A stretch of 64,000 bases of DNA from Deltaproteobacteria bacterium (GTDB lineage: Bacteria; Desulfobacterota; Binatia; UBA1149; SPBQ01), in the NCBI GenBank assembly GCA_029262375.1, contig JAJCZM010000049.1:3992-67991 (forward strand). The letters are read 5' to 3'. The translations under genes were made by a program, and so were the position numbers. This document shows, piece after piece, positions 9,464 to 51,553 of the stretch; position 1 is the first letter of the stretch, and the number at the start of each line of letters is the position of its first letter. A model generated the notes under the pieces. That model made no database searches. It worked only from the letters and a program-made list of their open reading frames with translations, and was not told where the DNA came from.

Positions 9464-10441
9464 CTACCATTGCGACGCATCTCCGGCGCTAATCTTCAGT
9501 TCGAAATCACCAAAGTCTGCTCGATACTTCTCCGGAGGCGGTCCTAGATCGACTGTGCTGCGCACCGCGTTGAGTGCCGAGCGGTCGAAATGCACGTTGC
9601 CAGAGGACTCGACGGCCCGCACCGACGTGACGGTACCGTCGGGCAGAATGGAGAACGCCACTACGGTGGCAAGATTCGGATCGGAGTCTTGTCCCCAGAC
9701 GAAGTTGGCCTTTATCGAGCCGAGCACACGGTTGTAGTAGCTCCAGAACGCCGCGCCGCGGATCTGCCCGGTCGTGCTTCCACTGCCCGCGCCGCCACCG
9801 CCGCCGCCGGCTGTGCTGGCGGAGGTACCGGCTGCGCCCCCGCCGCCTGTGGGTTTCGGCGCTTCAGCGGCCGGTTTGGGCGCGGGTTTAGGAGCGGGCT
9901 TAGGCGCCGGTTTGGGCTCGGGCTTGGGAGCCGGCTTCGGTGGCGGCTTCGGCGCCGGCTTCGGCTCGGGCTTCGGCACCGGTTTGGGCTCCGGCTTGGG
10001 CTTGGGCTCAGGCTTCGGCTCGGGCTTGGGCTCCGGCTTGGGCTCCGGCTTGGGTTCCGGCTTGGGAACGGGCTTCGGCTTCGGGGGCGGAGGCGGCTCC
10101 GGCTTCGGTTCCGGTTTGGGCTCAGGCTTAGGTGGTGGCGGTGGCTCGGGCTTCGGTTCGGGTTTCGGCTCGGGCTTCGGGGCCGGCGGCACACCGCCTT
10201 TCGCAAGCGGCCCTACATCCAAGAGTGGCGATCCGGCCGACGGCGAAACCAGGCCTACAACTGCCGCCCGCGGCAACTCACGCTCGCCCCACGAAAACAC
10301 CGCACCGATGGCAACCAGTGCAAAAATAGCGATGTGGACGGCGAGCGAAACCAGCAACGCCAACAACAATTGAGGATCGAATCGGCGGCGGTGAAGAAGC
10401 CGAGGGGCAGGCACGCCGCCCGAGTCCGACTGGCGAAGCAT
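9464..10441 (-). CDS. tolA: TolA-like energy-transducer protein (N-terminal TM anchor, long PEPK repeat, TonB-C-like domain)
   Basis: 325-aa ORF sitting in the tolA position between tolR and tolB. Has a TM helix ([25 protein letters not shown]), then ~100 aa of (PEPK)n, then a C-terminal TonB_C-like fold. Its start overlaps the tolR stop (TGATG). Confidence 0.7.
9870..10190. repeat. Coding 12-nt-periodic repeat (PEPKPEPK...) inside the tolA-like gene
   Basis: Runs of GGCTTCGG/GGCTTGGG units are visible on the plus strand. They translate on the minus strand to [26 protein letters not shown].... Coordinates are approximate. Confidence 0.8.
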
Positions 10442-15538: not shown

Positions 15539-15627
<89 letters not shown>

Positions 15628-15707
15628 CTACAACCGAACCTTTTCAAGAACTTGCGTGCCCCGCGCAATGGTCACGAGGCACAAATCGCCCGCTACCGTC
15701 ATCTCGC

Positions 15708-17033
15708 TTATTCGCCAGCAAGCTCGGGAATGAGATCCGCAAGCAACTCAGCCGGCCAGTAACGCGGGATCTGTCGATCACCGTAGTAGAGCGATGGCCC
15801 GATACGCATTCGGGAGATTTCCTCGGATGTAAGATCGTATGCACTGCGCGTGTGGTTCTCGGCCTCTCGCGCAAGCGCTACGTCAGCTACGATCGCCTGC
15901 AGCGTCTGTTCCGACTCGAAGTCTGTAGCGAATCGATCGGGATCCAGACCGAGCGCATCAGCCAGCTCACTCAGCGAGCGCGATTCAATAGAAGCACAGT
16001 CGGGCAACAACGACTCGTAGGCCTCAATCAGTTGTCCCTGCTTCGCCGCCGCATGGATCATACGCGCTCCCTCGAGCGCTCCCGGAAGCGTCCGCGTGCG
16101 AAAAGAACTATGAACCAGCGACCAGGCCGTGCCTTCAGCCTGCGTCGCATCCATCAGCGAGAATCCACCGCCCACCTGCGCGTAGTCCTCTCGGAATCGC
16201 GCCATGTCGAGTCCAGCACTGCGAGCCGCTTCGAACATCTCCGCCTCACCCAGCGCAAGAAACTTCGGATCAGGTGGGAACTCCGCTAGGAACTCGCGAT
16301 ACTTCCCTTGATTGATCGATGCGAGACCGCCGCGTAGCAACGTCTGATGGTATCGATCGACACCGTCACCGAGAAGCATACGCACCGTGATCGCCAGCCG
16401 ATTCGGATACAGATCAACCAATTCACGAAGTCTGTTGTGGGCATACTCCGGATAGCCGCACGCCGCATCGACGAACGCTGTAAGACGGACCGGAGCATCG
16501 GCGGGACCGAGTCGTGTCCAACCACGGTCCGGCAATTCAGGTGCAGGCAGCTTGGGGACGCGATCCGGACGAAGTTCGTCGAAGCGTTGGATATGACGCG
16601 TTCCCAAAACCTCTGCGATTGACGGCGTACTGCCCAAGGACGGACACGGCCTGTCTTCAACGACCACGTCGACAATGCCGCCCGTCTTCGGATATCCGTC
16701 GCAGCCAGTCCTCGATACGTACTCGACCGTAGACTTATCTGCCGGTGTCAGTCGCGCATTTGGTGTCCGAATCCAAGATGTCTCGCCGCACGGAACACTG
16801 CGAGCACCGAGCGGCCGCAGAGTGACAATCGCCGCGTCTGGCGCCTCATCTAGATGCGCCTCCGTAGCGTCGTTTTCTAGTCGCTCGCGATGCTCGATCG
16901 CCGGAACGCACGAGACCATCTCGGAATGAAAATGGCGGCAGTAGTCTACGCGCTCACAGGACGTGGCCTCAGCATCGTGAGACGAACCCGCAACGAAGAG
17001 TAAGATCGCAAGTCGGACGAGAACTAGCTTCAT
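15708..17033 (-). CDS. Secreted DsbA-like / thioredoxin-fold protein (CxxC position degenerate: ACGYPEY)
   Basis: The track ORF runs to 17129. A signal-peptide start MKLVLVRLAILLFVAGSS lies at 17033. The C-terminal ~250 aa resemble DsbA-family thiol-oxidoreductase domains by eye. A paralogous truncated copy lies at 28819-29496. Confidence 0.6.
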   Translation of the reverse strand: MKLVLVRLAILLFVAGSSHDAEATSCERVDYCRHFHSEMVSCVPAIEHRERLENDATEAHLDEAPDAAIVTLRPLGARSVPCGETSWIRTPNARLTPADKSTVEYVSRTGCDGYPKTGGIVDVVVEDRPCPSLGSTPSIAEVLGTRHIQRFDELRPDRVPKLPAPELPDRGWTRLGPADAPVRLTAFVDAACGYPEYAHNRLRELVDLYPNRLAITVRMLLGDGVDRYHQTLLRGGLASINQGKYREFLAEFPPDPKFLALGEAEMFEAARSAGLDMARFREDYAQVGGGFSLMDATQAEGTAWSLVHSSFRTRTLPGALEGARMIHAAAKQGQLIEAYESLLPDCASIESRSLSELADALGLDPDRFATDFESEQTLQAIVADVALAREAENHTRSAYDLTSEEISRMRIGPSLYYGDRQIPRYWPAELLADLIPELAGE

Positions 17034-17309
17034 CACATGCGGTATATACGATCTGGAGAAGACGCGTCGAGAGTCGCTTCGCCGCCGGGCGAACAGACTC
17101 GAAGCGGAGTGATCGGGGCAGCCAGACACCGAAATCCAATTGGGATGACGGGAAACCGATCAGCGTGGACTAGCGTCGCGTGATTCGCAGCCATCTCCCA
17201 GATACTCAACTCAGCGTCACAGCCATCCGTGCGTTACAGATGGCTGTGACGCTCATACAGCCGGGACATGCGCACCGGTGAGGCGTGCTCGTCAACGACC
17301 AATACGCCC

Positions 17310-18119
17310 CTAGTTCGCGGGCACGATAGACGAAACACTCACCGTCGGCGCCGTCACCGTGTCCGCCATATCAATCCCGACGCTCACGATCGCGAAGTCA
17401 GACGTAGCCGGCGGGCCGCCAGATTTCGCGAAACGGCATGTGAAGATCGAACCAGGACCCTGGATGCCGTCACCCTCGATCATCATCGCGTTGAGAACGC
17501 GAGTGTCGTCTGCATCAAGTAGCGCGACGGCATCAGGATCGACCAGCGGTGTCGTACAGGAAACCGAAGCGCCGCGCCCTTCGAACTCTCCTCCGGCAGC
17601 GCCGTACTGAACATCAACCTGGATACCGAAAAGTTCGGTAGTGTCGTCCAAGCCAAAAGTGACATCGTAGACATCGCCACGCAGAGCGGGCGTACAAATC
17701 AACGAGGTCTTCCATTTCGTGAAACTCCGCGTAGCGAAGCCGTCGGAAAATATCTCTTCGACTATGCCCACCGACGGGCACTTAGCGCGGTAGCAGATCT
17801 TGTAGAATGCGTCCGGGTCGCCATCCAACGTCCCGAAAGGTAGCTCCGATTCGTCGATGCTCATCGAAACCGGCCGGCAGATCTGTTTCGCCTTGAGCTT
17901 CACGCGACAACCGTCTGTATTCGGCAACGTCGCGCCGGCAGCGCTGAGTTCAGCGGAGAACGAGCCCGAGATACCATCGCGAACCCGGAAACACTGCATA
18001 TGGTCCAAGCCTTCAGCCCTGGCCGATGAGATGCCTTGCGGCGGTATGAGCGACGCGGCCAGGAATACGAGTGCAACGAACGAACGACGAACTAATACAT
18101 TGAGCGTAGTGCTATGCAT
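17310..18119 (-). CDS. Secreted two-domain protein; C-terminal half possibly cohesin-like
   Basis: The track ORF runs to 18410, but its first 97 codons are Cys/Arg-rich and overlap the upstream gene. The start MHSTTLNVLVRRSFVALVFLAASLIPPQGISSARA at 18119 is a good signal peptide. The C-terminal region DVTFGLDDTTELFGIQVDVQYG...GSIFTCRFAK...FAIVSV resembles the cohesin sequence pattern. Confidence 0.6.
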   Translation of the reverse strand: MHSTTLNVLVRRSFVALVFLAASLIPPQGISSARAEGLDHMQCFRVRDGISGSFSAELSAAGATLPNTDGCRVKLKAKQICRPVSMSIDESELPFGTLDGDPDAFYKICYRAKCPSVGIVEEIFSDGFATRSFTKWKTSLICTPALRGDVYDVTFGLDDTTELFGIQVDVQYGAAGGEFEGRGASVSCTTPLVDPDAVALLDADDTRVLNAMMIEGDGIQGPGSIFTCRFAKSGGPPATSDFAIVSVGIDMADTVTAPTVSVSSIVPAN

Positions 18120-18178
18120 GACATACCTCCGAATTGTGAAAACGTTTTTAGGAATCGTGACTCGGTCGATCAGAACCG

Positions 18179-19621
18179 CTACGGACCGCAACGGACCGGA
18201 ATCGGAATCTTTCCGACTACAGCATTGATCAGCACCAAGGCATCGGTCGCTGTGATCGCTCCGAATGGCGCAGCAACATCTGAGATGGGATGCGGTGGGG
18301 TCCGTTCGTATCCGGCCGCCATTTGCAGTGCGGCTAGAACATCGAGAATGGTAAGCGCTGTTTTTCCGTCGCTTGCGACGTAGTCTCCACAGACAGCCCT
18401 TGTCGTGCAACTCTTTCCGTCGCTGCTAGACGTCAGGTATTCCGTAATCTCATCGATCGAGCAGGACGAGAATTCCGTCGGCGGCGTCAGTGCCGACGGA
18501 TTCTTCTGCATGATGAACGTCGAGGACGGCTGAGCGGTGCATTCATGCTCATGAAAGGCGATCGTGCAGTCCTCCTGGCCGTCGTGCGCGCACTGCCCAG
18601 CCGAGTGACCAAACTCATGTGCGAGAAGCGACCAGTTGGTTCTGAACAGTGCACCTCCGTGGCGCTTGCCAACAGCCGCACCGTCGGTTCGGCAGAACTG
18701 TTCGGCGAAAGACCCTCCGAGCCCGCCGCCGGTCGGTTGGCCCGTCACCTGATATACGAATGGCGCGCCGCTGAGATGATTCCTCTTCCATGCCCGAACC
18801 TGTGTGGCTCGGGTATCAATGCTGTTCGTCGTCGAGAACTCGTTCGGGTCTTGAACCCACACCCTGACCTGCGTGACCTGGAATCGGACGTTAACTTGCG
18901 AGGCAAGCAGGAAGCTAGCCCCAATCGCGATGTTCACCATGTCACGAACGCTGGATTGCCCACCACCTGACTGCAGTGACGCGCTCGTATCGGAAATCAT
19001 TGTAATCGGTGCAATCGCAAGGCGCCCTGAGATCATCGCGGCTCGCTCGATACTCTCGATGCCCGTCGTAGAGGTCATGTCGGGCCCGGTAGAATCGAGC
19101 CCAAGCGGTAACATCTGAACCTCATGGATGTGTTCCATGCCGTACTGCGCTTCGGATGCCTCCACACCGACCGAGAGCGGCTTCACGCTGTAAGCGCCGG
19201 TTGTAGATAGTATCTGCGCCGTAACGCCCTGGTCGTCGAAGACGGCCGTGACCATGCTGGTCGGTTCGCCCCTTAGAGTTCCGGCATATGCGTTCGCCGG
19301 ACATGGAAACGAATTCTCACCGTCCGGCGATACTATCGTCGCAACGCAGTCCGGAGCGATGACGGGACTCCTCGTGAGCTGGACCACAAAGTCGCGACCA
19401 TGAGCTGAAAACTCCAGGTCTCGGAGGTAGCTGTTCCTCCGAGGCGCGCCGGCGGTTTGGTGCAACCGGCTCTGACTGAGATCGATCGCTACATGATCGA
19501 TTTCGACTTGCTCCTCCATCTTCCGGACGAACTCCAGATCCGCAATCTGAGTCCGGGCATCTGCTAGACGTGGCACAACAAGAGCAAGAGATACGAGAAT
19601 AGGAATCCGCAATATGTTCAC
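18179..19621 (-). CDS. Secreted reprolysin/ADAM-like metzincin metalloprotease with dockerin-like C-terminus
   Basis: 480 aa with a signal peptide (MNILRIPILVSLALVVPRLADA) and a pro-domain-like N-terminus. The zinc site is LLAHEFGHSAGQCAHDG, i.e. HExxHxxG then HD with one extra residue relative to canonical HExxHxxGxxHD. The tail contains CGDYVASDGKTALTILDVLAALQ...GAITATDALVLINAVVG. Confidence 0.75.
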   Translation of the reverse strand: MNILRIPILVSLALVVPRLADARTQIADLEFVRKMEEQVEIDHVAIDLSQSRLHQTAGAPRRNSYLRDLEFSAHGRDFVVQLTRSPVIAPDCVATIVSPDGENSFPCPANAYAGTLRGEPTSMVTAVFDDQGVTAQILSTTGAYSVKPLSVGVEASEAQYGMEHIHEVQMLPLGLDSTGPDMTSTTGIESIERAAMISGRLAIAPITMISDTSASLQSGGGQSSVRDMVNIAIGASFLLASQVNVRFQVTQVRVWVQDPNEFSTTNSIDTRATQVRAWKRNHLSGAPFVYQVTGQPTGGGLGGSFAEQFCRTDGAAVGKRHGGALFRTNWSLLAHEFGHSAGQCAHDGQEDCTIAFHEHECTAQPSSTFIMQKNPSALTPPTEFSSCSIDEITEYLTSSSDGKSCTTRAVCGDYVASDGKTALTILDVLAALQMAAGYERTPPHPISDVAAPFGAITATDALVLINAVVGKIPIPVRCGP

Positions 19622-19738
19622 TTGGAACCTCCAGGTCGAAGCGCGTCCGACGAGCGGCGTTGATACCCGTTAGAACGGGCTCGCCGTTTCGCACGGAGGA
19701 ACCTGAAGCAGCGAACAGAATCGGATTCGGATTCATCG

Positions 19739-20392
19739 CTACCAAGCCCCACCGATTGGAACCGGCGAAGTTGTCAGAACAGAAGGACATCGCGAAGCAC
19801 GCTCCGGACTCGCCGGACCATACTGTGTGAGCGTCAAACTATCGGGGAGTTCGTCAAACGGACCGAAGACAATCACGTCCGATCCGTCGGCGGCACGCGG
19901 CCGTGGGTCGAAGACATCAGCTGGGTCGACCTCTTCTGTCGCAACTGTCGCTTTGTTCTCTAGGGCAAAGGCCCACGAAACGGTGTCGGCGTAGTACAAC
20001 GCTGATGCTGGCCTTTGGGCCGTACGCGCTACGAAGTCCGCCTCTTCGGTGCAAGCACTCCCGCGGTTAGACGGACAGCACTCGATTCGATACCGCAGCC
20101 GCACAAATTCCTTTGGGTCGATGTGAACCGCAATGAAATACGGTTCTGGGTTCATGCCAGCTAGAAGTGCCTCGTTGGCGCGACGTTGTGTATCCGCCGA
20201 CTCGCGATCCGGGGAGTTCGCCAGGATATCACCGGCTCGTGCTTGCCCTCGAGTCATCACCCAGGTCGCTAGGATGGTTTGGCCGGGCTCCGCCGCTCGC
20301 GTAGCGGGACTCGCGCACGCTAGAGTGAGCCCGCTGAGCAGAAGACCGGCAATGACTTTCGTGAATCCCAGTTGATAATCCCTGACATTCAT
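19739..20392 (-). CDS. Hypothetical lipoprotein
   Basis: The track ORF runs to 20569. I prefer the start at 20392: MNVRDYQLGFTKVIAGLLLSGLTLACAS (lipobox LTLAC). I recognise no family. Confidence 0.55.
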   Translation of the reverse strand: MNVRDYQLGFTKVIAGLLLSGLTLACASPATRAAEPGQTILATWVMTRGQARAGDILANSPDRESADTQRRANEALLAGMNPEPYFIAVHIDPKEFVRLRYRIECCPSNRGSACTEEADFVARTAQRPASALYYADTVSWAFALENKATVATEEVDPADVFDPRPRAADGSDVIVFGPFDELPDSLTLTQYGPASPERASRCPSVLTTSPVPIGGAW

Positions 20393-20874
20393 TTCGTTCG
20401 TCTTCGTGAGTACTATGTTTCGTTCCATCTCAGTCACCATGCGAGTAGTCCGCATCTTGATTCTTGGGTGGATACTCACGACAGTTTTCCCCGACGAGCC
20501 CTCCAGTCTCTCGACCGGACGACTATCGTTTGTTGCGCCGGAAGGTAGCTCGGGGATGCCATGGCCCACAAGACACTTTTCCGCACAACGACTGTCGTGA
20601 CGTCACCACGCGTTCTATCTTTCGTTCATGATCTCATCCGATTGTATCCGCTCTGCGCGCGCACACGCGAGGGGGAGTGCCGTAGAAGTGTAACCTTGAG
20701 AGTACGCAGGAGTCGGCGCAAGCAAGAGATACCGCGCCACAGCAGAACGCCGGCTCCACAGCTCGCAAGGTACGAGCGCCGCGCGCGAAAGGAACGGACT
20801 TTAGGAAAGCTCAGGACTGTGGGATGGGAAGAAGCGGAGGGACCAAAATGGGGCACGCAGCCGCGTCCGTTTGA

Positions 20875-21141
20875 TTACTTCGGGCGCGCCACCCGGACGT
20901 CAACCTCAAAGAGCTTCGCAACTGGCTTCTGAAATGCCTCGGCTATGAGCAGCGCATCTTTTGTAGTTGGCCTGACCCGATGGTTCTTGAGCCGATTGAC
21001 TCGCGTACGCGATAGTCCCGTTCGCAGAGCGAGATCGCGATCCGTCCAGCCCCTGGCATACAGTTCTCGCACAAGGGAATTGCGGACGACGATCTCAGTT
21101 TCCCCAGATATCAGACTACAGCGTCGGTCCATCGTGCTCAC
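20875..21141 (-). CDS. Small XRE-family helix-turn-helix regulator
   Basis: 88 aa. The HTH pattern is DLALRTGLSRTRVNRLKNHRVRPTTKDALLIAEAF. Confidence 0.7.
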   Translation of the reverse strand: MSTMDRRCSLISGETEIVVRNSLVRELYARGWTDRDLALRTGLSRTRVNRLKNHRVRPTTKDALLIAEAFQKPVAKLFEVDVRVARPK

Positions 21142-21153
21142 CTCCGTGCGCTG

Positions 21154-21399
21154 CTAGTTCGCCGCAATTCTGTCGAAAGATTCGACCGGCTCGCGTAAAC
21201 GGAACATCTCCTCGACCTGCATACCCAGTAGCCCACTGAGCAGAACGGCGTAGAGTAGCGGCGGATTGGCTTCAACGGACAACGTTCGAAGAACTGATCG
21301 ATATGGAATGCCCGTACGCTCGGCCGCCGCGCTTGCCGACATGCGAATGCTGGATAGTTCTTGTCGGATGTTGTTCTCGATCGTGCCTTGCGAATTCAT
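21154..21399 (-). CDS. Small XRE-family helix-turn-helix regulator
   Basis: 81 aa. The HTH pattern is SASAAAERTGIPYRSVLRTLSVEANPPLLYAVLLSGLLG. Confidence 0.65.
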   Translation of the reverse strand: MNSQGTIENNIRQELSSIRMSASAAAERTGIPYRSVLRTLSVEANPPLLYAVLLSGLLGMQVEEMFRLREPVESFDRIAAN

Positions 21400-21930
21400 G
21401 ATGCTCTCCTCTCTGGTGGCGATTCTTGTGACACGCTACCACGCGCCGAATGCCGCCCGCTTGTTCCGACGGCTACTCGCGACTCGCAACGACGCGGAAG
21501 ATAGCGCCGAGAAATGTTGTCGCTCAAGCGGTTTCACTTGCTGTACGACAAGTCCCCGCCGTCGTTCGGCCGCGACGGCATGTCACGGGCCGCAACGACC
21601 GTCAGGAAGCCGACCATCGTTCGTCAGCGAGTGTTTTGGCGATAGACGCCTCTGTGCGCGCACGAGGGGATCTGGTCGGGAACGTTGCCGTCGCGCTGGG
21701 CGATGTTCCAGCCCTGTGGCGGCTGACGACGACCGAGCCGAGTCGACCCAGGTTGGCAATTCGGTGCAGGCAACTCGCGCGCCCACCCGTTCGCGGCCCG
21801 TAGCGTGCCGTGGCAGCGTGGCACGCCCCCGAATGCCCGTCGATTCGTTGACACGACTGCTTACGCGCGGCTACTACAGATACTTACGAGCCGCGTGTTG
21901 CGGCCAGTCACATTGCGGGAGGGGAAGAAC

Positions 21931-22764
21931 ATGGGCTTCGACAATGATCAGGATACTGGAGACGGCAGACTAGATCTGATCTTGCAGTTCTTGTTGCTAC
22001 GTCGGCTCAGCCAATTCGACTGGCCCGTGCAAAGCATCGAACTCTTCAATTCCTTGTTCAAAACTCGTAGCTCTAAACAGCTCCCAGGCTGGCTGAGCAA
22101 AGGAACTAGAGAACGCGCGCTGGCAAACCTGACCGGGCTCGGCTTCGTAGATTCCGTACAACTCAGCGGCCAGGGTGCATGCACGCCGCACGGATATCGC
22201 ATCACGACGCAGGGGCGGGACGCGCGTGCGCGCATCGCGCACGAACTACTACGAACGCCCGCCTTCTGGCTGCACGCTCGGCCCTGGCCATACCTGATGA
22301 TGGAAGTGCAGGACGAGATCGGCGCTGACGATATCGACGCAAGCATCCTCGCACTGGAGACTTACCGTCAACACTGGTGGGACTGGTTCTCGCTAGGCTC
22401 GCAGCTTGTGGCGACCTTCAGAACACAGAACAATGAAGGTGAGATCGAATTCGCCGTCGAAGGATGTCATCAGGCGCACCTCGCGGCCGTGAAGGCCATT
22501 ACCCGCGAACTCGACGCGACGATCGACGAACTCCGCGCACGTCGGTCAGAGCGCGAGAGCGAACAGATACGGAACGGCACGAGCTATGAGCAAGGACATC
22601 ATCGAACTCTCCGAGGTGACAAAGGTCTACGGTCGGGGATCCACACAGGTCACCGCGATCAAGAGCCTGAACCTGACGATCCCGCAGGGGCAGATGTGCG
22701 CGATCACTGGCCCGAGCGGATCAGGCAAAAGCACGGTGATGCATCTCGTCGCAGGATTGGCTAG
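21931..22764 (+). CDS. Hypothetical protein with winged-helix-like N-terminus
   Basis: ATG at 21931 preceded by GGGAGGGGAAG. MGFDNDQDTGDGRLDLILQFLLLRRL...GYRITTQGRDARARIAHELL looks like a MarR/PadR-type wHTH. The last ~60 codons overlap the ABC ATPase gene out of frame. Confidence 0.55.
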   Translation: MGFDNDQDTGDGRLDLILQFLLLRRLSQFDWPVQSIELFNSLFKTRSSKQLPGWLSKGTRERALANLTGLGFVDSVQLSGQGACTPHGYRITTQGRDARARIAHELLRTPAFWLHARPWPYLMMEVQDEIGADDIDASILALETYRQHWWDWFSLGSQLVATFRTQNNEGEIEFAVEGCHQAHLAAVKAITRELDATIDELRARRSERESEQIRNGTSYEQGHHRTLRGDKGLRSGIHTGHRDQEPEPDDPAGADVRDHWPERIRQKHGDASRRRIG

Positions 22765-23377
22765 ACCGACCCACGGCCGAATTGTCGTCGACGGAATTGA
22801 CCTGACCAACGCCAAGGACGACGAGGTCACCGTGATGCGGCGCCAGCGCGTCGCAATGATTTTCCAAACCTTCAATCTGCAAGCCGCTTGGACCGCAGCC
22901 GAGAACATCGCCTTCCAGCTCAAGCTCGCTGGATTTCCGAAGAATGAGCGCAAAGGAAAGGTAGACGCGGTGCTGGGCCGGATGGGATTGAGCCATCGTC
23001 GCAATCACTACCCTGACGAAATGTCTCGTGGCGAACAGCAGCGTGTCGCCATCGCACGGGCTCTTGTAGTCGAGCCGCGTATTCTACTCGCCGATGAACC
23101 GACGGGGAGTTTGGACTCGATTGCCTCTGATGAGATCGTCCAGAGTCTCGTGGACCTCTCCCACGAAGATAAAGTGACCACGCTACTCATAACGCACGAT
23201 CCGGCGGCGGCGGCGCTCGCCGATCGCCAGATCCGTCTGAAAGATGGGCAGATCATCTCGGATCGGACTCGGAACTATGAGTACAGCGAGATCGTAGACG
23301 CGCAAAGAGCGACAGCCGAGCAAGAAGCGGTCGAGTCATTGGAACTCACCGATAAAGAACGGAAGCTACTGAACTAA
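22586..23377 (+). CDS. ABC transporter ATP-binding protein (MacB/LolD-type)
   Basis: 263 aa. Walker A GPSGSGKST, signature MSRGEQQRVAIARAL, Walker B ILLADEPTGSLD. Confidence 0.9.
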   Translation: MSKDIIELSEVTKVYGRGSTQVTAIKSLNLTIPQGQMCAITGPSGSGKSTVMHLVAGLARPTHGRIVVDGIDLTNAKDDEVTVMRRQRVAMIFQTFNLQAAWTAAENIAFQLKLAGFPKNERKGKVDAVLGRMGLSHRRNHYPDEMSRGEQQRVAIARALVVEPRILLADEPTGSLDSIASDEIVQSLVDLSHEDKVTTLLITHDPAAAALADRQIRLKDGQIISDRTRNYEYSEIVDAQRATAEQEAVESLELTDKERKLLN

Positions 23378-23393: not shown

Positions 23394-24407
23394 CTACCAA
23401 ACGACCGCTGCGCCGCCGAGCGATAGTCCCGCGGACCCTGCACCCAGAAAAACCTTCTTCCCCACCTCGAGCACGCCTTCCTTACGGGCCTTCTCCAGCG
23501 CTAGTGGAAGATTCGCCGATGCGCAGTTGCCGCACTCGACGAGCGTAGAAATGGCCTCTTCGGGCGCGCGACCAAAGAGGCCCGCAGCGAATGCAGTTAG
23601 TCGTGGGCTTACCTGATGCGGAACGAGGACTTCGACGTCATCGGCGCTCCAACCGGCTGCCTCGAGCGTGGCCTGGACAACACCGGGCGCGAGTTCATGC
23701 ACGGCGGCGGCCATCGGTTTCATATCGCAAATGAGATAGTCGCGACCCTTGTCCGAGAGATCTAGCGAACCGCGCCCTTTCGCCAGGCAGTGCGGCCACA
23801 GATCGCTGCGGGCAACCGTATGGCTCGCGTAGATTCCACGATCCGGGTCATCACCCGCGCGGTGGTCGCGCACGAGAATCGCTCCGCCTGCGTCTCCGAT
23901 AGTAAACGAGGCGATATGCTTCATCGGATCGGCACCGTCCGCGATCAAGGGCCAGGGGATGCCATGGCTGAGCACCTCTCCGGAGGCGACCAGAACCGTT
24001 CGGTACATCCCCGAGCGGATGAAGGCTTCAGCAATTCGGACACCGTCAAAAACTCCGTTGCACGCATTCCCGGCATCGAAACACGGTACACAGTCCCAAC
24101 CTAGCTTGGCTTGTAGAATGTGCGCCGTTGCAGGTTCGATAACATCAGAGAACGCCGCACCGTAGATCAGACAATCGATCTCAGCAGGAGCGACGGACGC
24201 TCGAGTCAGCAGATCTTGCACTGCCAGCAGCGCCAGATCCGACCCGTCATCCGCATCATCACTGATGTGTCGCTGACGCACGCCGGTAATCGCCTCAATC
24301 CAACCCGGCTCAACGTCACCGGGTAACCGTCGCTCGAGCTCTCGGGTAGTTTCGACGGTCGGCGGAAGGTACGAGCCCACCGCATCAATGATCGGTCGTT
24401 TAGTCAT
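23394..24407 (-). CDS. 3-oxoacyl-ACP synthase III (FabH/KAS III-like) enzyme
   Basis: 337 aa. Has a Cys (DAGNACNG), His (VPHQVS) and Asn (GNCASANLP) triad context. Its ATG overlaps the permease stop (ATGA at 24404-24407). Confidence 0.8.
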   Translation of the reverse strand: MTKRPIIDAVGSYLPPTVETTRELERRLPGDVEPGWIEAITGVRQRHISDDADDGSDLALLAVQDLLTRASVAPAEIDCLIYGAAFSDVIEPATAHILQAKLGWDCVPCFDAGNACNGVFDGVRIAEAFIRSGMYRTVLVASGEVLSHGIPWPLIADGADPMKHIASFTIGDAGGAILVRDHRAGDDPDRGIYASHTVARSDLWPHCLAKGRGSLDLSDKGRDYLICDMKPMAAAVHELAPGVVQATLEAAGWSADDVEVLVPHQVSPRLTAFAAGLFGRAPEEAISTLVECGNCASANLPLALEKARKEGVLEVGKKVFLGAGSAGLSLGGAAVVW

Positions 24408-26998
24408 GCATCCTCAGCAACGGCTGCGGCTACGTCGAGTTGGCGCAGCTGCCAAAGCGGCAGGAGCAACGCCAGCGAACAAACGCCGAGAATCGTCGAT
24501 ACACCTCTCAGAGAAATTGCCCATGGAAATCCGAAGTCCAATACCCATCCTAACAAATAGGCCAGATGGTATTTCACCCAAAGGGATCCCGATACGAAGC
24601 CGCCACCTAGACCGAGGCCCAGACCGGCAATCATGACGACACCAAGTTCGAGAACAATCGCGGTCACGAGCTGCTTTCGTGTCACGCCCTGCCCCACGAG
24701 CCGTGCGATATCGCGGCGTCGATCGTGAAAATTAGTGAAGAGGAACAACAGTAATCCCACGCCCGTCGGTACGAGAAGCACCGTGTAGAGCACATCGACC
24801 GAACCGAAAGCCACATAGAGTCGCTCTCGGTGGTAGTCGAGCAACTCCGCTACAGGCAGGACTTTGTACGCGGATTCGTCGCCAAGACTGGCCGTGATTC
24901 CCGCTCGAACAGAATCTACGGTCACGCCCCGCTCAACCCGCACAAGAAAACGCGTTACGCGATCGTCACGCCACCATTTCTCTAGCGTATCGGCAGAAAG
25001 CAGCACAACTCCTCTATCATTCGCGTAGTCGACTACAATTCCGCTTACCGGCACGCGCAAGCGTCCGGAAGGTGTCGTAAGCTCGAGCACGTCACCGACA
25101 CTCACGTTCGTGTGCCGCGTGACCGATTCGGAAATCAGAACGCCTTTGCCTTCGCGCACGTCGCGCAACGCGCGCCCAACATCGCCGTCAACGAACCAGC
25201 GCGCATAGTTCTCGCCTATCAGGAAACTCTTCGAGACTGCCTGGATGCCGATGCGCACCCCACCCATGTCCTGGCCTGGGATAAGGCGCCAGGTATCGAC
25301 CGACTCGACACCATCAACTGCCGCAATGGTTTCCAGCAACGCCCGCGCTTGTGGTTCTTCGAGCCAGCCTCCACGCGTGTGCGTCGAGGACACCGTCAGA
25401 TCGCCGGCCAGATAGTCGCCAACCCAGCTCTCGGCACTGGTTTCGAAACTGCGGAACACACCGCCCAGCGAGATAATCGCTGTCATGACCAATGCGATCA
25501 GCCCGACAACCCAGGACGTCCGCGGAGCCGATGACGACATGTGCATCGTCGCGACCTCTCCTGCAGCGCCGAACCAACGGTCGATCACCGGCGATAGTCT
25601 GCGAGATACCAAAGCGAGGGCGGCCGGGCAGAGACAGGCGATCCCGGCAAAGCAGATTACGGCTGCAACATTGCCGAGAACTTGAGACCGATACGCCGAC
25701 TCCAAATAGATGACCGGCACCAGTAGGATCCAAAAGACGAGGGCGAGTAATGTAGGCTTCCACACGTCCATCCCATGCGGCCGGTACTCGTTCTTCACAT
25801 TCGATACGGCCTCGACTGGATCGAGTTGAGACACGCGCTGTGCAGGTATCAACGCCGCCACGATCGCGGTAGAGACTCCGCCGGCGAACGCGAGTCCGAT
25901 ATCCATAGATGTTGCTGTCAATTCCGCCGTGGAAAGTCGCGTTAGATAGACGATCTCCATCGTACGAAGGAGCGCGTCGGAAAGAACGCGGGCGAGAGCC
26001 AAGCCTGCTACCACGCCTAACGCCGATGCTAAGACGCCAATGATCGCGGCCTCGCCTAAGACCATCAGTCGAATTTCGCTGCGCCGGACCCCAGCTGTTC
26101 GCAGCTGGCCCACCATTCGCCCGCGCGTCACCATCGCTGTAGAGATCGCCGAGTACGCGATGAACGCTGCAACCATTAGCGCCATTAAGACATAGCCGTC
26201 GACGATGGTCTGGAAAGCAGAGAGAGCTCGCTCTCGGTAGCCGGCGCGACCGAGCGGCTCATCTACGTCGTAAGTTGCACCGACAGCCGAGTTCAACTGG
26301 CTCCGCAACTCTACCAACGAAGTCTGCGGCCGCGGAACGATATCGATGTACGACGCTACGTCGCCGCGCAGACCCAGGAGCGCCTGCGCAGCAAACAGGT
26401 CCAGGACGGCAACAGGCTGGTTCAGCCCGCCGAGCGCACCGGGCTGGCTAAGCACACCGGCTACACGCAGATCCGTGGGACCGGTCGGCGCAACCACACG
26501 AATCGTATCGCCAACCTGAAGGGAAGCTCCCGGCGGCACGAGGATCGCCTTCGGATCGTTCAGAAGTTCGAGTGGATCATCGATACCGGCAATGCTGACG
26601 CGGTAGATCTCTTCTATGCGATCAACACTGAAGTCCATGCCGATCAGACGAAGGCCCTCACCGTTGTCAGCTCGTGGCACCGTCGCATCGATGATCGCGA
26701 TGGCAGCGGCCACGCCCGGATGCGCACGGACCTGAGCCAAGGCGCCCATGTCGACCGCCAGCTCGCCGCCTGGAGCGGTGAGCTGGAGTTCGGCCTCGCC
26801 GACAACCGCCATGATGTTCGCCTCGAATGCGACGTTGACCGCTTGGATTACAACTCGAAACCCGACCATCACCGACACGCCTGCAGCGAGCCCGACAATC
26901 ATCAGTAAGGTGCGGAATCGATTTCGTCGCAGTTCGCTGAGGGAGAAACTACGAAGGAGCGTAAGGGTGGCGTTTCGGCCTACTGGGAGATGGACCAT
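24404..26998 (-). CDS. FtsX-family ABC transporter permease with two FtsX domains (864 aa)
   Basis: Shows the N-terminal TM + large periplasmic domain + 3 TM pattern twice, typical of fused MacB/YbbP-like permeases. Confidence 0.8.
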   Translation of the reverse strand: MVHLPVGRNATLTLLRSFSLSELRRNRFRTLLMIVGLAAGVSVMVGFRVVIQAVNVAFEANIMAVVGEAELQLTAPGGELAVDMGALAQVRAHPGVAAAIAIIDATVPRADNGEGLRLIGMDFSVDRIEEIYRVSIAGIDDPLELLNDPKAILVPPGASLQVGDTIRVVAPTGPTDLRVAGVLSQPGALGGLNQPVAVLDLFAAQALLGLRGDVASYIDIVPRPQTSLVELRSQLNSAVGATYDVDEPLGRAGYRERALSAFQTIVDGYVLMALMVAAFIAYSAISTAMVTRGRMVGQLRTAGVRRSEIRLMVLGEAAIIGVLASALGVVAGLALARVLSDALLRTMEIVYLTRLSTAELTATSMDIGLAFAGGVSTAIVAALIPAQRVSQLDPVEAVSNVKNEYRPHGMDVWKPTLLALVFWILLVPVIYLESAYRSQVLGNVAAVICFAGIACLCPAALALVSRRLSPVIDRWFGAAGEVATMHMSSSAPRTSWVVGLIALVMTAIISLGGVFRSFETSAESWVGDYLAGDLTVSSTHTRGGWLEEPQARALLETIAAVDGVESVDTWRLIPGQDMGGVRIGIQAVSKSFLIGENYARWFVDGDVGRALRDVREGKGVLISESVTRHTNVSVGDVLELTTPSGRLRVPVSGIVVDYANDRGVVLLSADTLEKWWRDDRVTRFLVRVERGVTVDSVRAGITASLGDESAYKVLPVAELLDYHRERLYVAFGSVDVLYTVLLVPTGVGLLLFLFTNFHDRRRDIARLVGQGVTRKQLVTAIVLELGVVMIAGLGLGLGGGFVSGSLWVKYHLAYLLGWVLDFGFPWAISLRGVSTILGVCSLALLLPLWQLRQLDVAAAVAEDA

Positions 26999-35820: not shown

Positions 35821-38800
35821 TTAAAGCAGCGCCGGGCAGATGAGCGGCACGGGCGTACCAACCGCGACCCTCAATACGAGCAGTGCATCCGCCGATGTCG
35901 TCTCGCCATCGCCGCTCGGGTCGCAGACGGCTATGTCGACTTCGTTGCAGTCGGCCAGACCCACCGCAGCCCGTAACACTCCAAGTGCGTCGCTGGCTTC
36001 CACTATGCCATCGCCGTCATAGTCACCGCATAGCTCGCCGCAGGTCATAGAACAGACATCGCCATTATCGAGGTTTCCGTCGTCGCAGCGCTCTCCCTGT
36101 TCAACGATTCCGTTGCCACACTCGGTGGGAGCGCAAAGACACGTCACTTGGCAACGACCGGGACAAGCGTCGTCATCGTACCCGTCACATTCCTCACCTT
36201 GACTGCCGTCAGCAAAGTGATCACCACACATCGGCGCAACGAATGTCGCGTCGACCACATAGAAAGGAACGGCCTGGCCGTTGTAGCCCGCCACGACGAA
36301 CTCGTAGGTGCCTGGGGCAACGACATGACTCAGAAATGAGCAGTAGCCTGGCCCGCTGTCATCATCGTAGGCTACCTCGACACGCTCTCCAGTCTCATTG
36401 ACGAGATAGAGCGTCATGATCGTATCGTAACTGCAGTCACCTTCGCCATCGCTGGTCTCCAGGACGACGCGCACCTCCGTAGACGTCGTGAACCCGTAGA
36501 CGTCCGATTCTCCATCCTCGAAGCCGCCCTCGAAACGACCACCGTCACCGATTTCGATGGGCTCTACCAGGCAGGACGCATCGCAGCCATCGTCGACGGC
36601 AAGATTTCCGTCATCGCACTCTTCGCCAATCCCGACATCGACTCTCGCATCCCCGCACCCCGGATTTTCGAATTCGACATCGAGCAGGTAGGTATCAGAG
36701 CTGGCGACAGAGTAGGTTGAAACCACAAGCTCATACTCTCCTGGCGACAACGCACGGACGATCGTGCGACAGCCGATCTCATTGAAATCGCCCCTATCAA
36801 CGTACGTAACTTCGACGCCCGTAGTCACATCGAAAAGAATCATGTCGTGGTGATAGGGGACACCACATCCTCCGACATCGTTTGTCATCTCGGCGAGAAC
36901 TCGCGTGTTCTCGTCGACACTGAGAGTAAATATATCGAAGACGCGGGGGGCGGTGCCTGATTCGAAGATACCGCCTTCGGTGATGTCGATGGGTTCTACA
37001 TCGCAAGCTGCATCGCAGCCGTCTCCACCGGCCACGCCACCGTCATCGCACGTCTCCTCGGCGGCGAGATCGACCACGCCGTCGCCGCAGGCGAACGGCT
37101 CAAACACCACCTCGAAGACATAGGGCCCCAAGTCCTCAATGTCGTAGCTGCGAACCTCGATGACGTATTCGCCCGCCTCGAGTGCCTCCACAAGCAGGGC
37201 GCAGCCTAGGTCGTTTCTGGTGCCCGACGCCACGTATTTATCGGGCCGGCCGGACTCTGCCTCATACAAGGTCATCTCCCCGTCAAAGGGGAAGGGACAG
37301 CCTCCCGAACCATCTTGAACTTCAGCGCTTACGCGCAGCGACTCCTCCAAGGTGAATGTGAACAGATCGAACGAACGAGGCTCGAACCGGCCGTCGAAGC
37401 TCCCCCCGCCGGTGACGTCGGTCGCCTCTACTATGCAGGCGTCGTCACATCCATCGCCCGAGCTAAGATTGCCATCGTCGCATTCTTCCGCGATATCGAG
37501 ACCGACATCCACAATTCCATCCCCGCACTGAGGGTCCGAGAATGAAACGTCGAGGACGTAGGCTGGAAGCGTGTCGTAGAAACGCGAGTCAATGACGAGT
37601 TCGTACTCCCCCTGCTCTATCGTCATCACTAGCACCGGACAGCCGCCTGCGTTTATATCGCCCGACCTTACCCAGAACCCCGAGTCCGTAAACTCGTAAA
37701 GTCTCATCTCAATGTCGTAGGGATCCGGACAACCTTCGATACCGTCGCTCACAAGGGCCTCAATGCGCTGGAGGGAAGCGACTGTAAACGAGTAGCGGTC
37801 GAAGGACCCCGACGTCCGACCTCCCTCGAAGCGACCACCTCCGGAGATGTCCAAGCTCTCCACTTCGCACACAGGGCTACACCCGTCGCCGGCGTCGGTA
37901 TTGCCATCGTCGCACTCTTCGGACTCGGCAAGCGAGACGGATGCAGCGCTGCTCCCGACCCCGATGAGAGGGTTGGAATCGTCTGTTCCCGTTCCGCCAC
38001 TGCCGACGCCCACTGGATCACGTGTTCCGTCACCGCACGTCGGAACGGGCATCGAGGCTTCCAACACGTAGGAGCCGCCGGCACCGCCGTCTCTACCCGA
38101 TACGATGAGTTCGTAGCGGCCGGCATCAAGTTGCCGTACAACCGTCGAACAGCCCAACGCATTTGTCGTGCCGCCGGCAACGAACGACACGGAACCATCC
38201 GACTCTGTGAAAAACAGCATCGTCTCCGTGTCGTACGGAATCGGGCATCCATCAATTCCATCATTGATCTCAGCAGAGAATCGCCGCACGTCGCTCAACA
38301 AGAACGTGAATCGATTGAGAGCGCCGGGACCGATGGAGGCGGAAAACTGGCCGCCGCCGCTAATGTCGATGGGTTCGGCCCGGCAGAACGAGTCGCAACC
38401 ATCACCGTCCGTGAGGCCACTATCATCGCACTCTTCGAGCGCATCGACGATACCGTCGCCACAAAACGGATCCTCGAAGGTGACATCGAGCGTGTAGTAC
38501 GGTAGCGCTCGGTCGCGTGACTGGACGACGACCTCGTAGGTTCCTTCGGGCAATGATCGGCGCATGAGCGCGCACCGATCATCGTCTCTGTCGCTGTAGC
38601 CGATCCTGTTCCGCTGCCCGTCGGAACCGACAGCGAACAAAGTCAAGTCCTCCGTGTAGGAACAGGGAACAGGCGAAGAATCCAGACGCGCGTCGAGTCT
38701 AGCGGGACTCGAAAGCGTGAAGGCGAACAAGCCGAATGATCCGGCCTTGAAACCGCCGACGAATCGCCCACCATCGCCGATATCCACCGATTCTACGTTG

Positions 38801-39456
38801 CATTCGGCATCGCAGCCATCGAGATCCGCGCTGTTGCCATCATCGCATTCCTCTCCCGGACCGATATCTCCGTCGCCACACGTAACCAGACCTACGACGA
38901 TGTCGACTACGTACGCCTCGACGGCCCGACCACCAAAACCGCTGACGATGACTTCGTACGAACCGGACACCAAGGACACCTCGAGCGCCGAGCAGGGCCC
39001 CACTCCAGAGTCGTCATCGCGCTCGAGTGTATCGCGGTCCCCGTTGGGGGAGACGGAAAAGATAGCGATCGCCGTATCTGCCGGACACCCTCCCAGGCCG
39101 TCGCTGGTCTCGATCGCCACGCGCGACGCGCCGGTCAACGACAAACTGAACAGATCGAAGGAGCCGTCCGAGAATGCACCGTCGAAGCGACCGCCACCGC
39201 TGGCATCTACCGCCTCGACCATACACTCAGGATCACATCCGTCGCCTGCCACAAAGTTGCCGTCGTCGCACTGCTCAGAGGCATCCACGCTACCGTTGCC
39301 GCAACTCACAACGACCTGACGGTAGCCCGTCCCGTCGGTCGCGAGATCTTGATATCCCTGCTGGGTCCAGCCGACGACGAACGTCGAGCCAGGAGTGGGC
39401 AGCGCTAAGCAAAAGAGAACGAGGAAGGTCAGAAAGACCGAGACCGGCCGATACAT
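35821..39456 (-). CDS. Giant secreted modular protein: ~9 Cys-rich CDDGN-type repeats alternating with ~100-aa beta-sandwich-like modules, C-terminal dockerin-like pair
   Basis: The track ORF runs to 39684. A signal-peptide start MYRPVSVFLTFLVLFCLALPTPG lies at 39456. Repeats are of the form CGDG..D.GEECDDGN...GDGCD..C.VE (Myxococcus cysteine-rich repeat type). The tail is CGDYDGDGIVEASDALGVLRAAVG...CDPSGDGETTSADALLVLRVAVG. Confidence 0.85.
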   Translation of the reverse strand: MYRPVSVFLTFLVLFCLALPTPGSTFVVGWTQQGYQDLATDGTGYRQVVVSCGNGSVDASEQCDDGNFVAGDGCDPECMVEAVDASGGGRFDGAFSDGSFDLFSLSLTGASRVAIETSDGLGGCPADTAIAIFSVSPNGDRDTLERDDDSGVGPCSALEVSLVSGSYEVIVSGFGGRAVEAYVVDIVVGLVTCGDGDIGPGEECDDGNSADLDGCDAECNVESVDIGDGGRFVGGFKAGSFGLFAFTLSSPARLDARLDSSPVPCSYTEDLTLFAVGSDGQRNRIGYSDRDDDRCALMRRSLPEGTYEVVVQSRDRALPYYTLDVTFEDPFCGDGIVDALEECDDSGLTDGDGCDSFCRAEPIDISGGGQFSASIGPGALNRFTFLLSDVRRFSAEINDGIDGCPIPYDTETMLFFTESDGSVSFVAGGTTNALGCSTVVRQLDAGRYELIVSGRDGGAGGSYVLEASMPVPTCGDGTRDPVGVGSGGTGTDDSNPLIGVGSSAASVSLAESEECDDGNTDAGDGCSPVCEVESLDISGGGRFEGGRTSGSFDRYSFTVASLQRIEALVSDGIEGCPDPYDIEMRLYEFTDSGFWVRSGDINAGGCPVLVMTIEQGEYELVIDSRFYDTLPAYVLDVSFSDPQCGDGIVDVGLDIAEECDDGNLSSGDGCDDACIVEATDVTGGGSFDGRFEPRSFDLFTFTLEESLRVSAEVQDGSGGCPFPFDGEMTLYEAESGRPDKYVASGTRNDLGCALLVEALEAGEYVIEVRSYDIEDLGPYVFEVVFEPFACGDGVVDLAAEETCDDGGVAGGDGCDAACDVEPIDITEGGIFESGTAPRVFDIFTLSVDENTRVLAEMTNDVGGCGVPYHHDMILFDVTTGVEVTYVDRGDFNEIGCRTIVRALSPGEYELVVSTYSVASSDTYLLDVEFENPGCGDARVDVGIGEECDDGNLAVDDGCDASCLVEPIEIGDGGRFEGGFEDGESDVYGFTTSTEVRVVLETSDGEGDCSYDTIMTLYLVNETGERVEVAYDDDSGPGYCSFLSHVVAPGTYEFVVAGYNGQAVPFYVVDATFVAPMCGDHFADGSQGEECDGYDDDACPGRCQVTCLCAPTECGNGIVEQGERCDDGNLDNGDVCSMTCGELCGDYDGDGIVEASDALGVLRAAVGLADCNEVDIAVCDPSGDGETTSADALLVLRVAVGTPVPLICPALL

Positions 39457-50707: not shown

Positions 50708-50866
50708 CGATCACAGGAAGTATCGAGAAATCGGTACTCGCGCCAGTGCCGCCGGCGGTGGAGTTCAAGGGTCCGATCTCCTGAACTCCGCCGCCGGCCA
50801 ACGTCGTGACAAAGCCCCGCCGATGGCGTAACCCTACCGACTACCGAACGGCTGGGGGGAATCATC

Positions 50867-51553
50867 ATGACTCGAAACGCAATGTACGTACTGTGGGCAG
50901 CCACATGCATGTTCGTTCTAAGCGGCACGTCCAGTGCACGCGCCGTATGTGGCGACGTAAACGCAAGCGGCGATGTTACAGCCACGGACGCGCTCGTCGT
51001 TCTCAACGAGGCCGTCGGACTCAATCCTGATCTCGCTTGCGATACAGAGTTTGAGACTCGCGTCTCTGAGCTGGAACGAAGCGCGTCGCCGATCGTTCGT
51101 GACCGCGAGGGCGCGGAGATCGGCGTCCTCGTCCTGGACATTCGGGCTATAGATGGGCTTTCGTTGGTAGTTCGCGACACCGTCCAACAACGGCAACTGC
51201 GTATCGACACATACTGGGGCTCCCAGGGGGAATTGATCAACAATCCCAGCGAGCTTCCTTTCTTCGCAACCCCAGACTGTTCCGGCCCTGCGTACGTCGA
51301 CACGAGTACGACACTGGTCGTCTCGGGATCTTCAGACACCGAGTACCGGGTCTGGAGATCCAGTGCCCCGATCTCGTCGCCAACGACTATCATGAGCCAT
51401 ATCGATTCCGAGGAGTGTATCCTTCTCCCCGAGCAGTACAGATCCACCGTCACAGACATGGGCCTCGATCAGTTCGGCAACGCGTGGTACACGGCTACGG
51501 AAGTCGAGCTGACCTACATGGTTCCGATACGATTCCCCATCACGATCGACTAG
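50867..51553 (+). CDS. Secreted hypothetical protein with a single N-terminal dockerin-like segment
   Basis: 228 aa with a signal peptide. This is followed by CGDVNASGDVTATDALVVLNEAVG. Confidence 0.6.
   Translation: MTRNAMYVLWAATCMFVLSGTSSARAVCGDVNASGDVTATDALVVLNEAVGLNPDLACDTEFETRVSELERSASPIVRDREGAEIGVLVLDIRAIDGLSLVVRDTVQQRQLRIDTYWGSQGELINNPSELPFFATPDCSGPAYVDTSTTLVVSGSSDTEYRVWRSSAPISSPTTIMSHIDSEECILLPEQYRSTVTDMGLDQFGNAWYTATEVELTYMVPIRFPITID

Follow-up and report, generated by a model that had tools for sequence, protein, structure and literature searches.

The 64-kb stretch of DNA analyzed here (referred to below as the window), which came from an uncultured bacterium of a biofilm metagenome, contained two adjacent genes for secreted proteins: a reprolysin-type metzincin protease with a divergent dockerin-like tail, and a 269-residue protein made up of two domains. 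The C-terminal domain of the 269-residue protein (the C-domain) belonged to an unannotated family whose predicted fold was matched best by cohesins and whose members often carried a dockerin in the same polypeptide. The modeled fold and the genomic context suggested that this uncultured lineage probably has a sequence-divergent cohesin-dockerin assembly system, and we judged the chances that the C-domain family binds the lineage's dockerins, as a functional equivalent of cohesin, to be evenly balanced. Cohesins are flattened jelly-roll beta-sandwiches of about nine strands that bind dockerins specifically, usually in a calcium-dependent manner. Type I dockerins consist of two repeats of about 22 residues, in each of which a helix comes after a calcium-binding loop (D.[DN].[DN]....D). 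The two adjacent genes were as follows.

17310..18119, minus strand: gene for the two-domain protein (P0001), 269 aa, secreted; start MHSTT; signal-like hydrophobic N terminus, N-domain, C-domain
18179..19621, minus strand: gene for the M12B (reprolysin-type) metzincin, 480 aa, secreted; matched by Pfam Reprolysin and four related models

The metzincin gene was located upstream of the two-domain gene in a head-to-tail arrangement, with 59 nt between them and no terminator-like site on the minus strand of that gap. A public 12.5-kb contig had identical gene calls for both the metzincin and the 269-residue protein. A longer, TTG-started open reading frame (ORF) at 17310-18410, which overlapped the metzincin gene, was rejected; the ATG at 18119 was chosen because the public-contig gene calls and all of the homologues agreed on this start. 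The ORF set used for the searches described below comprised the 964 ORFs from all six frames that were 40 aa or longer.

The 269-residue product had no Pfam, NCBIfam, or PDB sequence match, and word-indexed homologue searches with this product or with the metzincin returned only the query itself. An exhaustive phmmer search with the 269-residue product against 1.84 billion representatives yielded 793 proteins, and all domain and dockerin counts given here were taken among the 150 matches listed. The N- and C-terminal halves matched independently, and the C-terminal half was often repeated in tandem. The preliminary description of this DNA had proposed a C-terminal domain of about 120 aa in the 17310 product; the independent matches and the tandem repeats in relatives supported its existence as a separable unit. 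The boundaries of the two domains were as follows.

17670..18029, minus strand: N-domain, residues ~31-150; cysteine-rich, DUF7450 type (DHxxC[FY][KR]V.D ... CY..KCP ... D.FG.R ... C.P)
17313..17681, minus strand: C-domain, residues ~147-269; beta-sandwich family without annotation, predicted fold cohesin-like

The N-domain matched independently in 100 of the 150 relatives listed, and it came right behind the signal-like N terminus of many secreted proteins that were not related in other respects. Pfam DUF7450 (PF24247; cut-off, 27 bits) was detected in 66 of the 92 relatives that had only the N-domain (N-only proteins), and the family consensus scored 42.4 bits. The window copy had no DUF7450 match and was recognized by its family hidden Markov model (HMM) with an E value of 1e-35. 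The C-domain family, which had two nearly invariant cysteines in its alignment, lacked a Pfam or NCBIfam model. Its HMM matched only the 17310 ORF in the window, in a single copy. The named C-domain relatives were labeled "DUF4215 domain-containing protein," "hypothetical protein [Candidatus Binatia bacterium]," or "cysteine-rich repeat protein," and none was labeled "cohesin."

Single-sequence AlphaFold2 prediction of the whole 269-residue protein was unusable, with a predicted local distance difference test score (pLDDT) of 43. When an alignment of 86 C-domains was supplied, the C-domain was modeled with a pLDDT of 93.7 and a predicted template modeling (TM) score (pTM) of 0.88. The model was a beta-sandwich with eight predicted strands assigned by DSSP. 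In a Foldseek search of this model against 350,542 PDB chains, ranks 1 to 9 were all occupied by cohesins, from five organisms, with probabilities of 0.96-1.00, TM scores of 0.41-0.60, and E values of 0.004-0.11. These cohesins were Clostridium thermocellum type II cohesins and scaffoldin fragments, Ruminococcus bromii Sca5, three Clostridium perfringens cohesin-like modules, and an Archaeoglobus fulgidus cohesin. The best TM score (0.60; 108 aligned columns; root mean square deviation, 3.3 Å) was that of the A. fulgidus non-cellulosomal cohesin 2xdh. YcnI, pilins, and p53 came after the cohesins, with lower probability. There was no carbohydrate-binding module (CBM) among the 50 best PDB matches and no known metalloprotease inhibitor among the PDB matches of the C-domain. 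The match between the predicted C-domain fold and the cohesin fold was consistent and specific in rank and moderate in score.

Several results weighed against the idea that the C-domain is a cohesin equivalent. The Foldseek E values and TM scores were only moderate, and the beta-sandwich is a common fold. Pfam Cohesin (PF00963) did not match the window protein (E <= 1) or the family consensus (E <= 10), and the one marginal match among the 86 relatives (E 0.0026) was not significant after 86 tests. The sequence of CipA Coh2 was first verified against 1OHZ/1ANU, and hhalign comparisons of the C-domain alignment with CipA Coh2 and with a shallow CipA alignment yielded no match. A homologue search seeded with CipA Coh2 gave no more than 10 close relatives, too few for a deep cohesin profile, and when PDB was searched with P0160 for more diverse cohesins, the matches were mainly CipA copies. 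The C-domain family profile had no match among PDB sequences. Homology to cohesins was not demonstrated, since the sequence-level tests were negative, and the claim rests on fold and context. Thus, the resemblance to cohesin suggested in the preliminary description was seen in the predicted fold, with cohesins as the nine best PDB matches, and was not seen with cohesin sequence profiles. The C-domain family is perhaps a very distant evolutionary equivalent of cohesin.

The architecture of the relatives linked the C-domain to dockerins. In relatives, the C-domain was found in two to four tandem copies with a dockerin in the same protein, and the recurrent layout of the multi-copy relatives (signal peptide, two or three C-domains, DUF4215, dockerin, and a final C-domain) resembled that of a scaffoldin. 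Pfam Dockerin_1 was found in 24 of the 58 C-domain proteins and did not appear in the list of families of the 92 N-only proteins. We also used a lineage dockerin HMM, which was made from 31 dockerins of relatives plus the dockerin of the window's own large protein (described below). This HMM matched 35 of 58 C-domain proteins versus 0 of 92 N-only proteins (Fisher p = 5e-19). Because the N-only proteins were secreted proteins from the same search, the dockerin association was specific to the C-domain. The consensus of the lineage HMM scored 48.8 bits on Pfam Dockerin_1, which indicated that the HMM described a true dockerin subfamily; judging from their sequences, the lineage dockerins belong to type I and carry additional cysteine staples (CGD...C...CD). 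A CipA-type cohesin HMM matched nothing in the window or in the C-domain family, which left these dockerins without a recognized partner. On the other side of the ledger, the lineage HMM was trained on the dockerins of C-domain proteins (the Pfam counts were independent of that HMM), and the co-occurrence was mostly within one polypeptide, which shared extracellular use could explain.

One alternative is that the C-domain is a generic extracellular beta-sandwich with a spacer, adhesion, or glycan-binding role and does not bind dockerins. In that case, C-domains and dockerins would both be common building blocks of secreted proteins in the lineage, and the dockerins would bind something else or act only as calcium-stabilized modules. 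The lack of a sequence-profile link between the C-domain and cohesins and the moderate fold scores are what this alternative would predict, and Peer et al. (2009) reportedly found that many bacteria without cellulosomes have dockerin-like modules and no detectable cohesins. However, a generic sandwich does not readily account for the absence of dockerins from the N-only secreted proteins, for a list of the 50 best PDB matches headed by cohesins and devoid of CBMs, or for tandem arrays with a single dockerin, which is the scaffoldin pattern. We consider the generic sandwich unlikely and favor dockerin binding by the C-domain family.

Three secreted proteins in the window had been described as carrying dockerin-like segments. 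The corresponding genes and modules, other than the metzincin gene listed above, were as follows.

35821..39456, minus strand: gene for a secreted repeat protein (the large protein), ~1211 aa; eight DUF4215/myxo_disulf_rpt repeats alternating with PPC (pre-peptidase C-terminal)-like domains, dockerin at the end
35848..36039, minus strand: dockerin of the large protein; C-terminal, two full repeats, cysteine-stapled
50867..51553, plus strand: gene for the 50867 product, 228 aa, secreted; dockerin repeat directly after a signal-like N-terminal segment
50942..51067, plus strand: single dockerin repeat of the 50867 product (CGDVNASGDVTATDALVVLNEAVGL...C); second repeat absent
18182..18397, minus strand: divergent dockerin-like tail of the metzincin, residues ~409-480, detected with the lineage dockerin HMM

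Six-frame regular-expression scans located every one of the segments: 18299-18385 and 18203-18289 (minus strand) in the metzincin, 35947-36033 and 35845-35931 (minus strand) in the large protein, and 50942-51031 (plus strand) in the 50867 product. An additional regular-expression match at 45225-45311 had no support from the lineage dockerin HMM and was dropped.

The large protein was the sole window protein to exceed the curated cut-off of Pfam Dockerin_1 (PF00404; 22.9 bits), with a score of 23.1 bits for residues 1144-1194. The 50867 product scored 16.8 bits, which is below the cut-off, and only its first repeat was aligned (profile positions 2-21). Exactly three of the 964 ORFs were matched by the lineage dockerin HMM, and the next ORF had an E value of 0.5. 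The large protein scored 66 bits, with its own sequence being part of the model; the 50867 product matched HMM positions 3-47, or one repeat, with an E value of 3e-13; and the metzincin tail matched HMM positions 3-60, with both repeats aligned, at an E value of 1e-5 and a score of 21 bits. Hence, the lineage HMM supported dockerin modules on all three secreted proteins, and the Dockerin_1 cut-off was passed by the large protein only. The sequences point to three grades of dockerin in the window: a complete module in the large protein, a single-repeat module in the 50867 product, and a degenerate module in the metzincin.

In the large protein, Pfam detected DUF4215 in 8 stretches plus PPC, and TIGR02232 scored 201.7 bits. 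The PPC-like beta domains were found in some of the repeats, and NCBIfam DVUA0089 (FDP) also matched. Besides Dockerin_1, the 50867 product had no Pfam or NCBIfam match. A 265-aa minus-strand ORF (50662-51459) without a Pfam match overlapped nearly all of 50867-51553; the plus-strand gene was judged to be the real one because of its strong dockerin match and signal-like N terminus. Single-repeat "half dockerins" near the N terminus recurred in unrelated proteins of the lineage, namely, at 50942-51067 in the window, at 3-1247 in locus L092, and at 9528-10046 in locus L007.

A residue alignment indicated that the metzincin tail kept both dockerin helices (LTILDVLAALQ and ITATDALVLINAVVG). Loop 1 contained an insertion, and acidic residues were lost from loop 2. 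The inner cysteines were gone, and the outer pair (CG...RCGP) was kept as a bracket. The same tail was found on homologous metzincins in two loci from other metagenomes, L002 and L008, at the following positions.

L002, 3858-5327: homologous metzincin gene
L008, 3111-4808: homologous metzincin gene

The first loop of the L008 metzincin, GDVDGDGQIDSTD, conformed to the lineage dockerin consensus pattern, and that of the L002 metzincin, DHDNEDAITAVD, kept acidic residues at the corresponding positions. On this sequence evidence, we regard the tail as a dockerin relative, a degenerate member of the lineage dockerins.

The best Pfam Reprolysin stretch of the metzincin, its catalytic part, was as follows.

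18422..18958, minus strand: metzincin catalytic domain, residues 222-400

The 480-aa protein scored 40.9 bits on Pfam Reprolysin (PF01421; cut-off, 20.8 bits). The canonical metzincin zinc motif is HExxHxxGxxHD. The translation contained a zinc motif of the HExxHxxG type, HEFGHSAGQCAHD, in which an extra residue precedes the third His and places it one residue further along, and FIM was a putative Met-turn. The zinc motif of the L008 metzincin was HEIGHQVGVTLHD; the L002 orthologue read HEYGHLLGADEDG, with acidic residues at the expected place of the third ligand. At the corresponding place, the orthologues had the Met-turn candidates FIM and GIM. The window protein therefore resembled M12B reprolysin/adamalysin metzincins in its Pfam Reprolysin match, HExxHxxG motif, and candidate Met-turn, but it differed from them in the shifted third His and in its ancillary domain, which was a dockerin-like tail rather than a disintegrin or Cys-rich domain.

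The pairing of the two genes was conserved. A metzincin gene and a gene for a two-domain homologue were adjoining or near each other in three divergent loci (the window, L002, and L008), in which the metzincins were 23-32% identical and the two-domain proteins were 30-41% identical. The closest homologues of the two-domain protein, P0002 (41% identical) and P0007 (30% identical), were each encoded one gene away from a homologous metzincin with the same tail (28% and 32% identical, respectively). In addition, a gene for a dockerin module was found within about 3 kb of the two-domain gene in every informative locus. In L092, the two-domain locus was flanked by two dockerin genes, one of which had a Doc-C-Doc arrangement; in L007, a single-repeat dockerin gene was 2.7 kb from the two-domain gene; and in P0013, the dockerin was in cis with the two-domain protein.

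Two distant contigs shared a conserved housekeeping locus that contained genes for multi-copy proteins (L089, 9953-13140; L090, 7839-12352). These genes encoded three or four cohesin-like domains plus a dockerin, and each adjoined a second C-domain-plus-dockerin gene. BNR-repeat and FBPase genes bordered the locus at one end, and genes for Tyr-deacylase, DUF1285, and SpoU bordered it at the opposite end.

Some observations made a functional connection between the window's two-domain protein and the metzincin less secure. Pfam Dockerin_1 did not match the metzincin, most calcium-ligand residues of its tail were lost, and both calcium loops were degenerate. Only three metzincin pairs are known. 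As for transcript support, the public sequencing runs with the locus were DNA only, and no RNA runs contained it.

The conserved pairing could also mean that the two-domain protein, once secreted, inhibits the metzincin or serves it as a chaperone or immunity-like partner, with the dockerin-like tail playing no part in the pairing. The model for this explanation is provided by the small beta-proteins that are encoded beside serralysin-type metzincins, and inhibitor genes are often located beside metzincin genes. The synteny with a metzincin in three divergent loci would fit such a role, as would a small, secreted protein that is predicted to be all-beta. Yet both domains were widespread in places with no metzincin nearby (e.g., L007, L092, L089, and L090), the C-domain was mostly found in multi-copy proteins with dockerins, and the PDB matches included no known metalloprotease inhibitor. 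We regard an inhibitor or chaperone role as very unlikely.

The window cassette of metzincin and two-domain genes was bounded by tRNA-Leu (15539-15627) and two small helix-turn-helix genes (20875-21399), and the GC content of 15539-22000 was 0.58-0.59, slightly below that of the flanks. Resolvase/recombinase, rve integrase, or transposase genes were located beside homologous cassettes in L002, L005, L007, and L008. The cassette may be in a small variable or mobile region. These features, together with the extra gene between the pair members in L002 and L008, would suit independent genes that sit together near tRNA-Leu for no functional reason and owe their synteny to common descent of the cassette, an explanation that we find very unlikely because the pair was kept at 23-41% protein identity even though the intervening and flanking genes differed, which argues for selection on the pair.

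If the C-domain family does bind dockerins, the 17310 product would act as a secreted monovalent adaptor in which a DUF7450-type N-domain is joined to a single cohesin-like module. Once exported, its C-domain would bind the dockerin-like tail of the metzincin one to one, and the N-domain might direct or anchor the resulting complex of adaptor and protease. Specific pairing of the C-domain with the degenerate metzincin tail is, in our estimation, somewhat less probable than binding at the level of the family, and such binding may or may not depend on calcium. The partners of the large protein and the 50867 product would be cohesin-like modules from other parts of the genome, and the candidates are proteins with two to four such modules, as seen in relatives. 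The preliminary description had envisioned a scaffold that gathers the protease and other cargo. This part of it did not stand: because the 17310 product has only one cohesin-like module, it would be an adaptor for one partner at a time, not a multi-enzyme scaffold.

On a broader scale, we tentatively propose a lineage-wide extracellular assembly in Candidatus Binatia and relatives. Its components would be cysteine-stapled dockerins, a cohesin family invisible to profiles, scaffoldin-like proteins with two to four modules and a dockerin of their own, and DUF7450-cohesin adaptors for a dockerin-tailed metalloprotease. Such an assembly would be a cellulosome counterpart of a proteolytic, non-carbohydrate kind, and none has been described in the phylum concerned.

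The predicted fold of the C-domain was closest to those of cellulosomal cohesins and of cohesins from non-cellulosomal systems: A. fulgidus 2xdh, which pairs with a dockerin of its own; cohesin-like modules in glycoside hydrolases and toxins of C. perfringens (2jh2 and 2vo8); and the R. bromii amylosome cohesins (7urp). The cohesin and dockerin of A. fulgidus have been employed as a functioning pair (PMC12484212). As in the non-cellulosomal systems, the window cargo was not a cellulase, the modules were on secreted proteins, and dockerin-type modules were in the same genome region and the same proteins as C-domains. The C-domain differed from those cohesins in having no Pfam Cohesin profile similarity, in being shorter (~120 aa versus ~135-160 aa in the matched chains), and in having two nearly invariant cysteines; the candidate partner dockerins differed in their extra cysteine staples, and the host appears to belong to an uncultured lineage, labeled Candidatus Binatia. 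Pgk was uninformative for taxonomy, its best match (61%) being in a "Deltaproteobacteria bacterium" metagenome-assembled genome.

Cellulosomal scaffoldins such as CipA/ScaA have several cohesins and one dockerin of another specificity, and the C-domain relatives likewise showed two to four tandem copies and one dockerin. Unlike these scaffoldins, the window protein had one module and no dockerin, no CBM or S-layer homology anchor was seen, the window had no dockerin-bearing glycoside hydrolase, and the last C-domain of the relatives followed the dockerin.

Atypical or truncated dockerins offer a further comparison. They include the clasped ScaA dockerin (PMC3821032) and the naturally truncated dockerins of Ruminococcus flavefaciens (PMC12270676). 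The metzincin tail, with both helices and degenerate calcium loops, and the single repeat of the 50867 product were reminiscent of such modules, although the lineage of the window modules is unrelated. The terminal cysteines of the metzincin tail (CG...RCGP) could, from their placement in the sequence, clasp the module in the manner of the ScaA dockerin.

Non-cellulosomal cohesin-dockerin systems are already known, and hence the kind of system is not new. The new elements are a cohesin-like family that is invisible to current profiles, candidate dockerin partners that are cysteine-stapled, the conservation of the pairing with a metalloprotease, and the lineage. A full-text literature search found no paper joining Binatota or DUF4215 with dockerin. 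Many organisms that do not produce cellulosomes have dockerin-like modules, which usually lack a recognizable cohesin. The C-domain family, which spans several hundred representative clusters and is not covered by a Pfam or NCBIfam model, is a concrete candidate partner for such modules, and it is supported in three ways: by its predicted fold, by the scaffoldin-like architecture, and by the conserved pairing with the gene for a dockerin-tailed protease. If binding is confirmed, cohesin-dockerin assembly would be extended to proteases in a phylum that is yet uncultured, new orthogonal pairs would become available for protein engineering, and many proteins now called "hypothetical" or "DUF4215" could be annotated.

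Some other genes were noted around the pair. Directly downstream of the two-domain gene, a 473-aa protein (15708-17129, minus strand) had a weak, sub-threshold DsbA/thioredoxin-like C-terminal region; this product could serve disulfide formation in its cysteine-rich secreted neighbors. An ABC ATPase gene (22586-23377, plus strand) and a long gene for an FtsX-type (MacB-like) permease (24404-26998, minus strand) were no more than 5 kb from the metzincin gene, and in L008 (1-2898), ABC ATPase/FtsX-type permease genes immediately preceded the gene for the homologous metzincin. Elsewhere in the window, two transglutaminase-like genes and circularly permuted ATP-grasp, Alpha-E, and DUF2126 genes formed a cluster. 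The glycolysis genes gap, pgk, and tpiA were also present, as were rpsB/tsf and rho, which indicated that the window is chromosomal core DNA.

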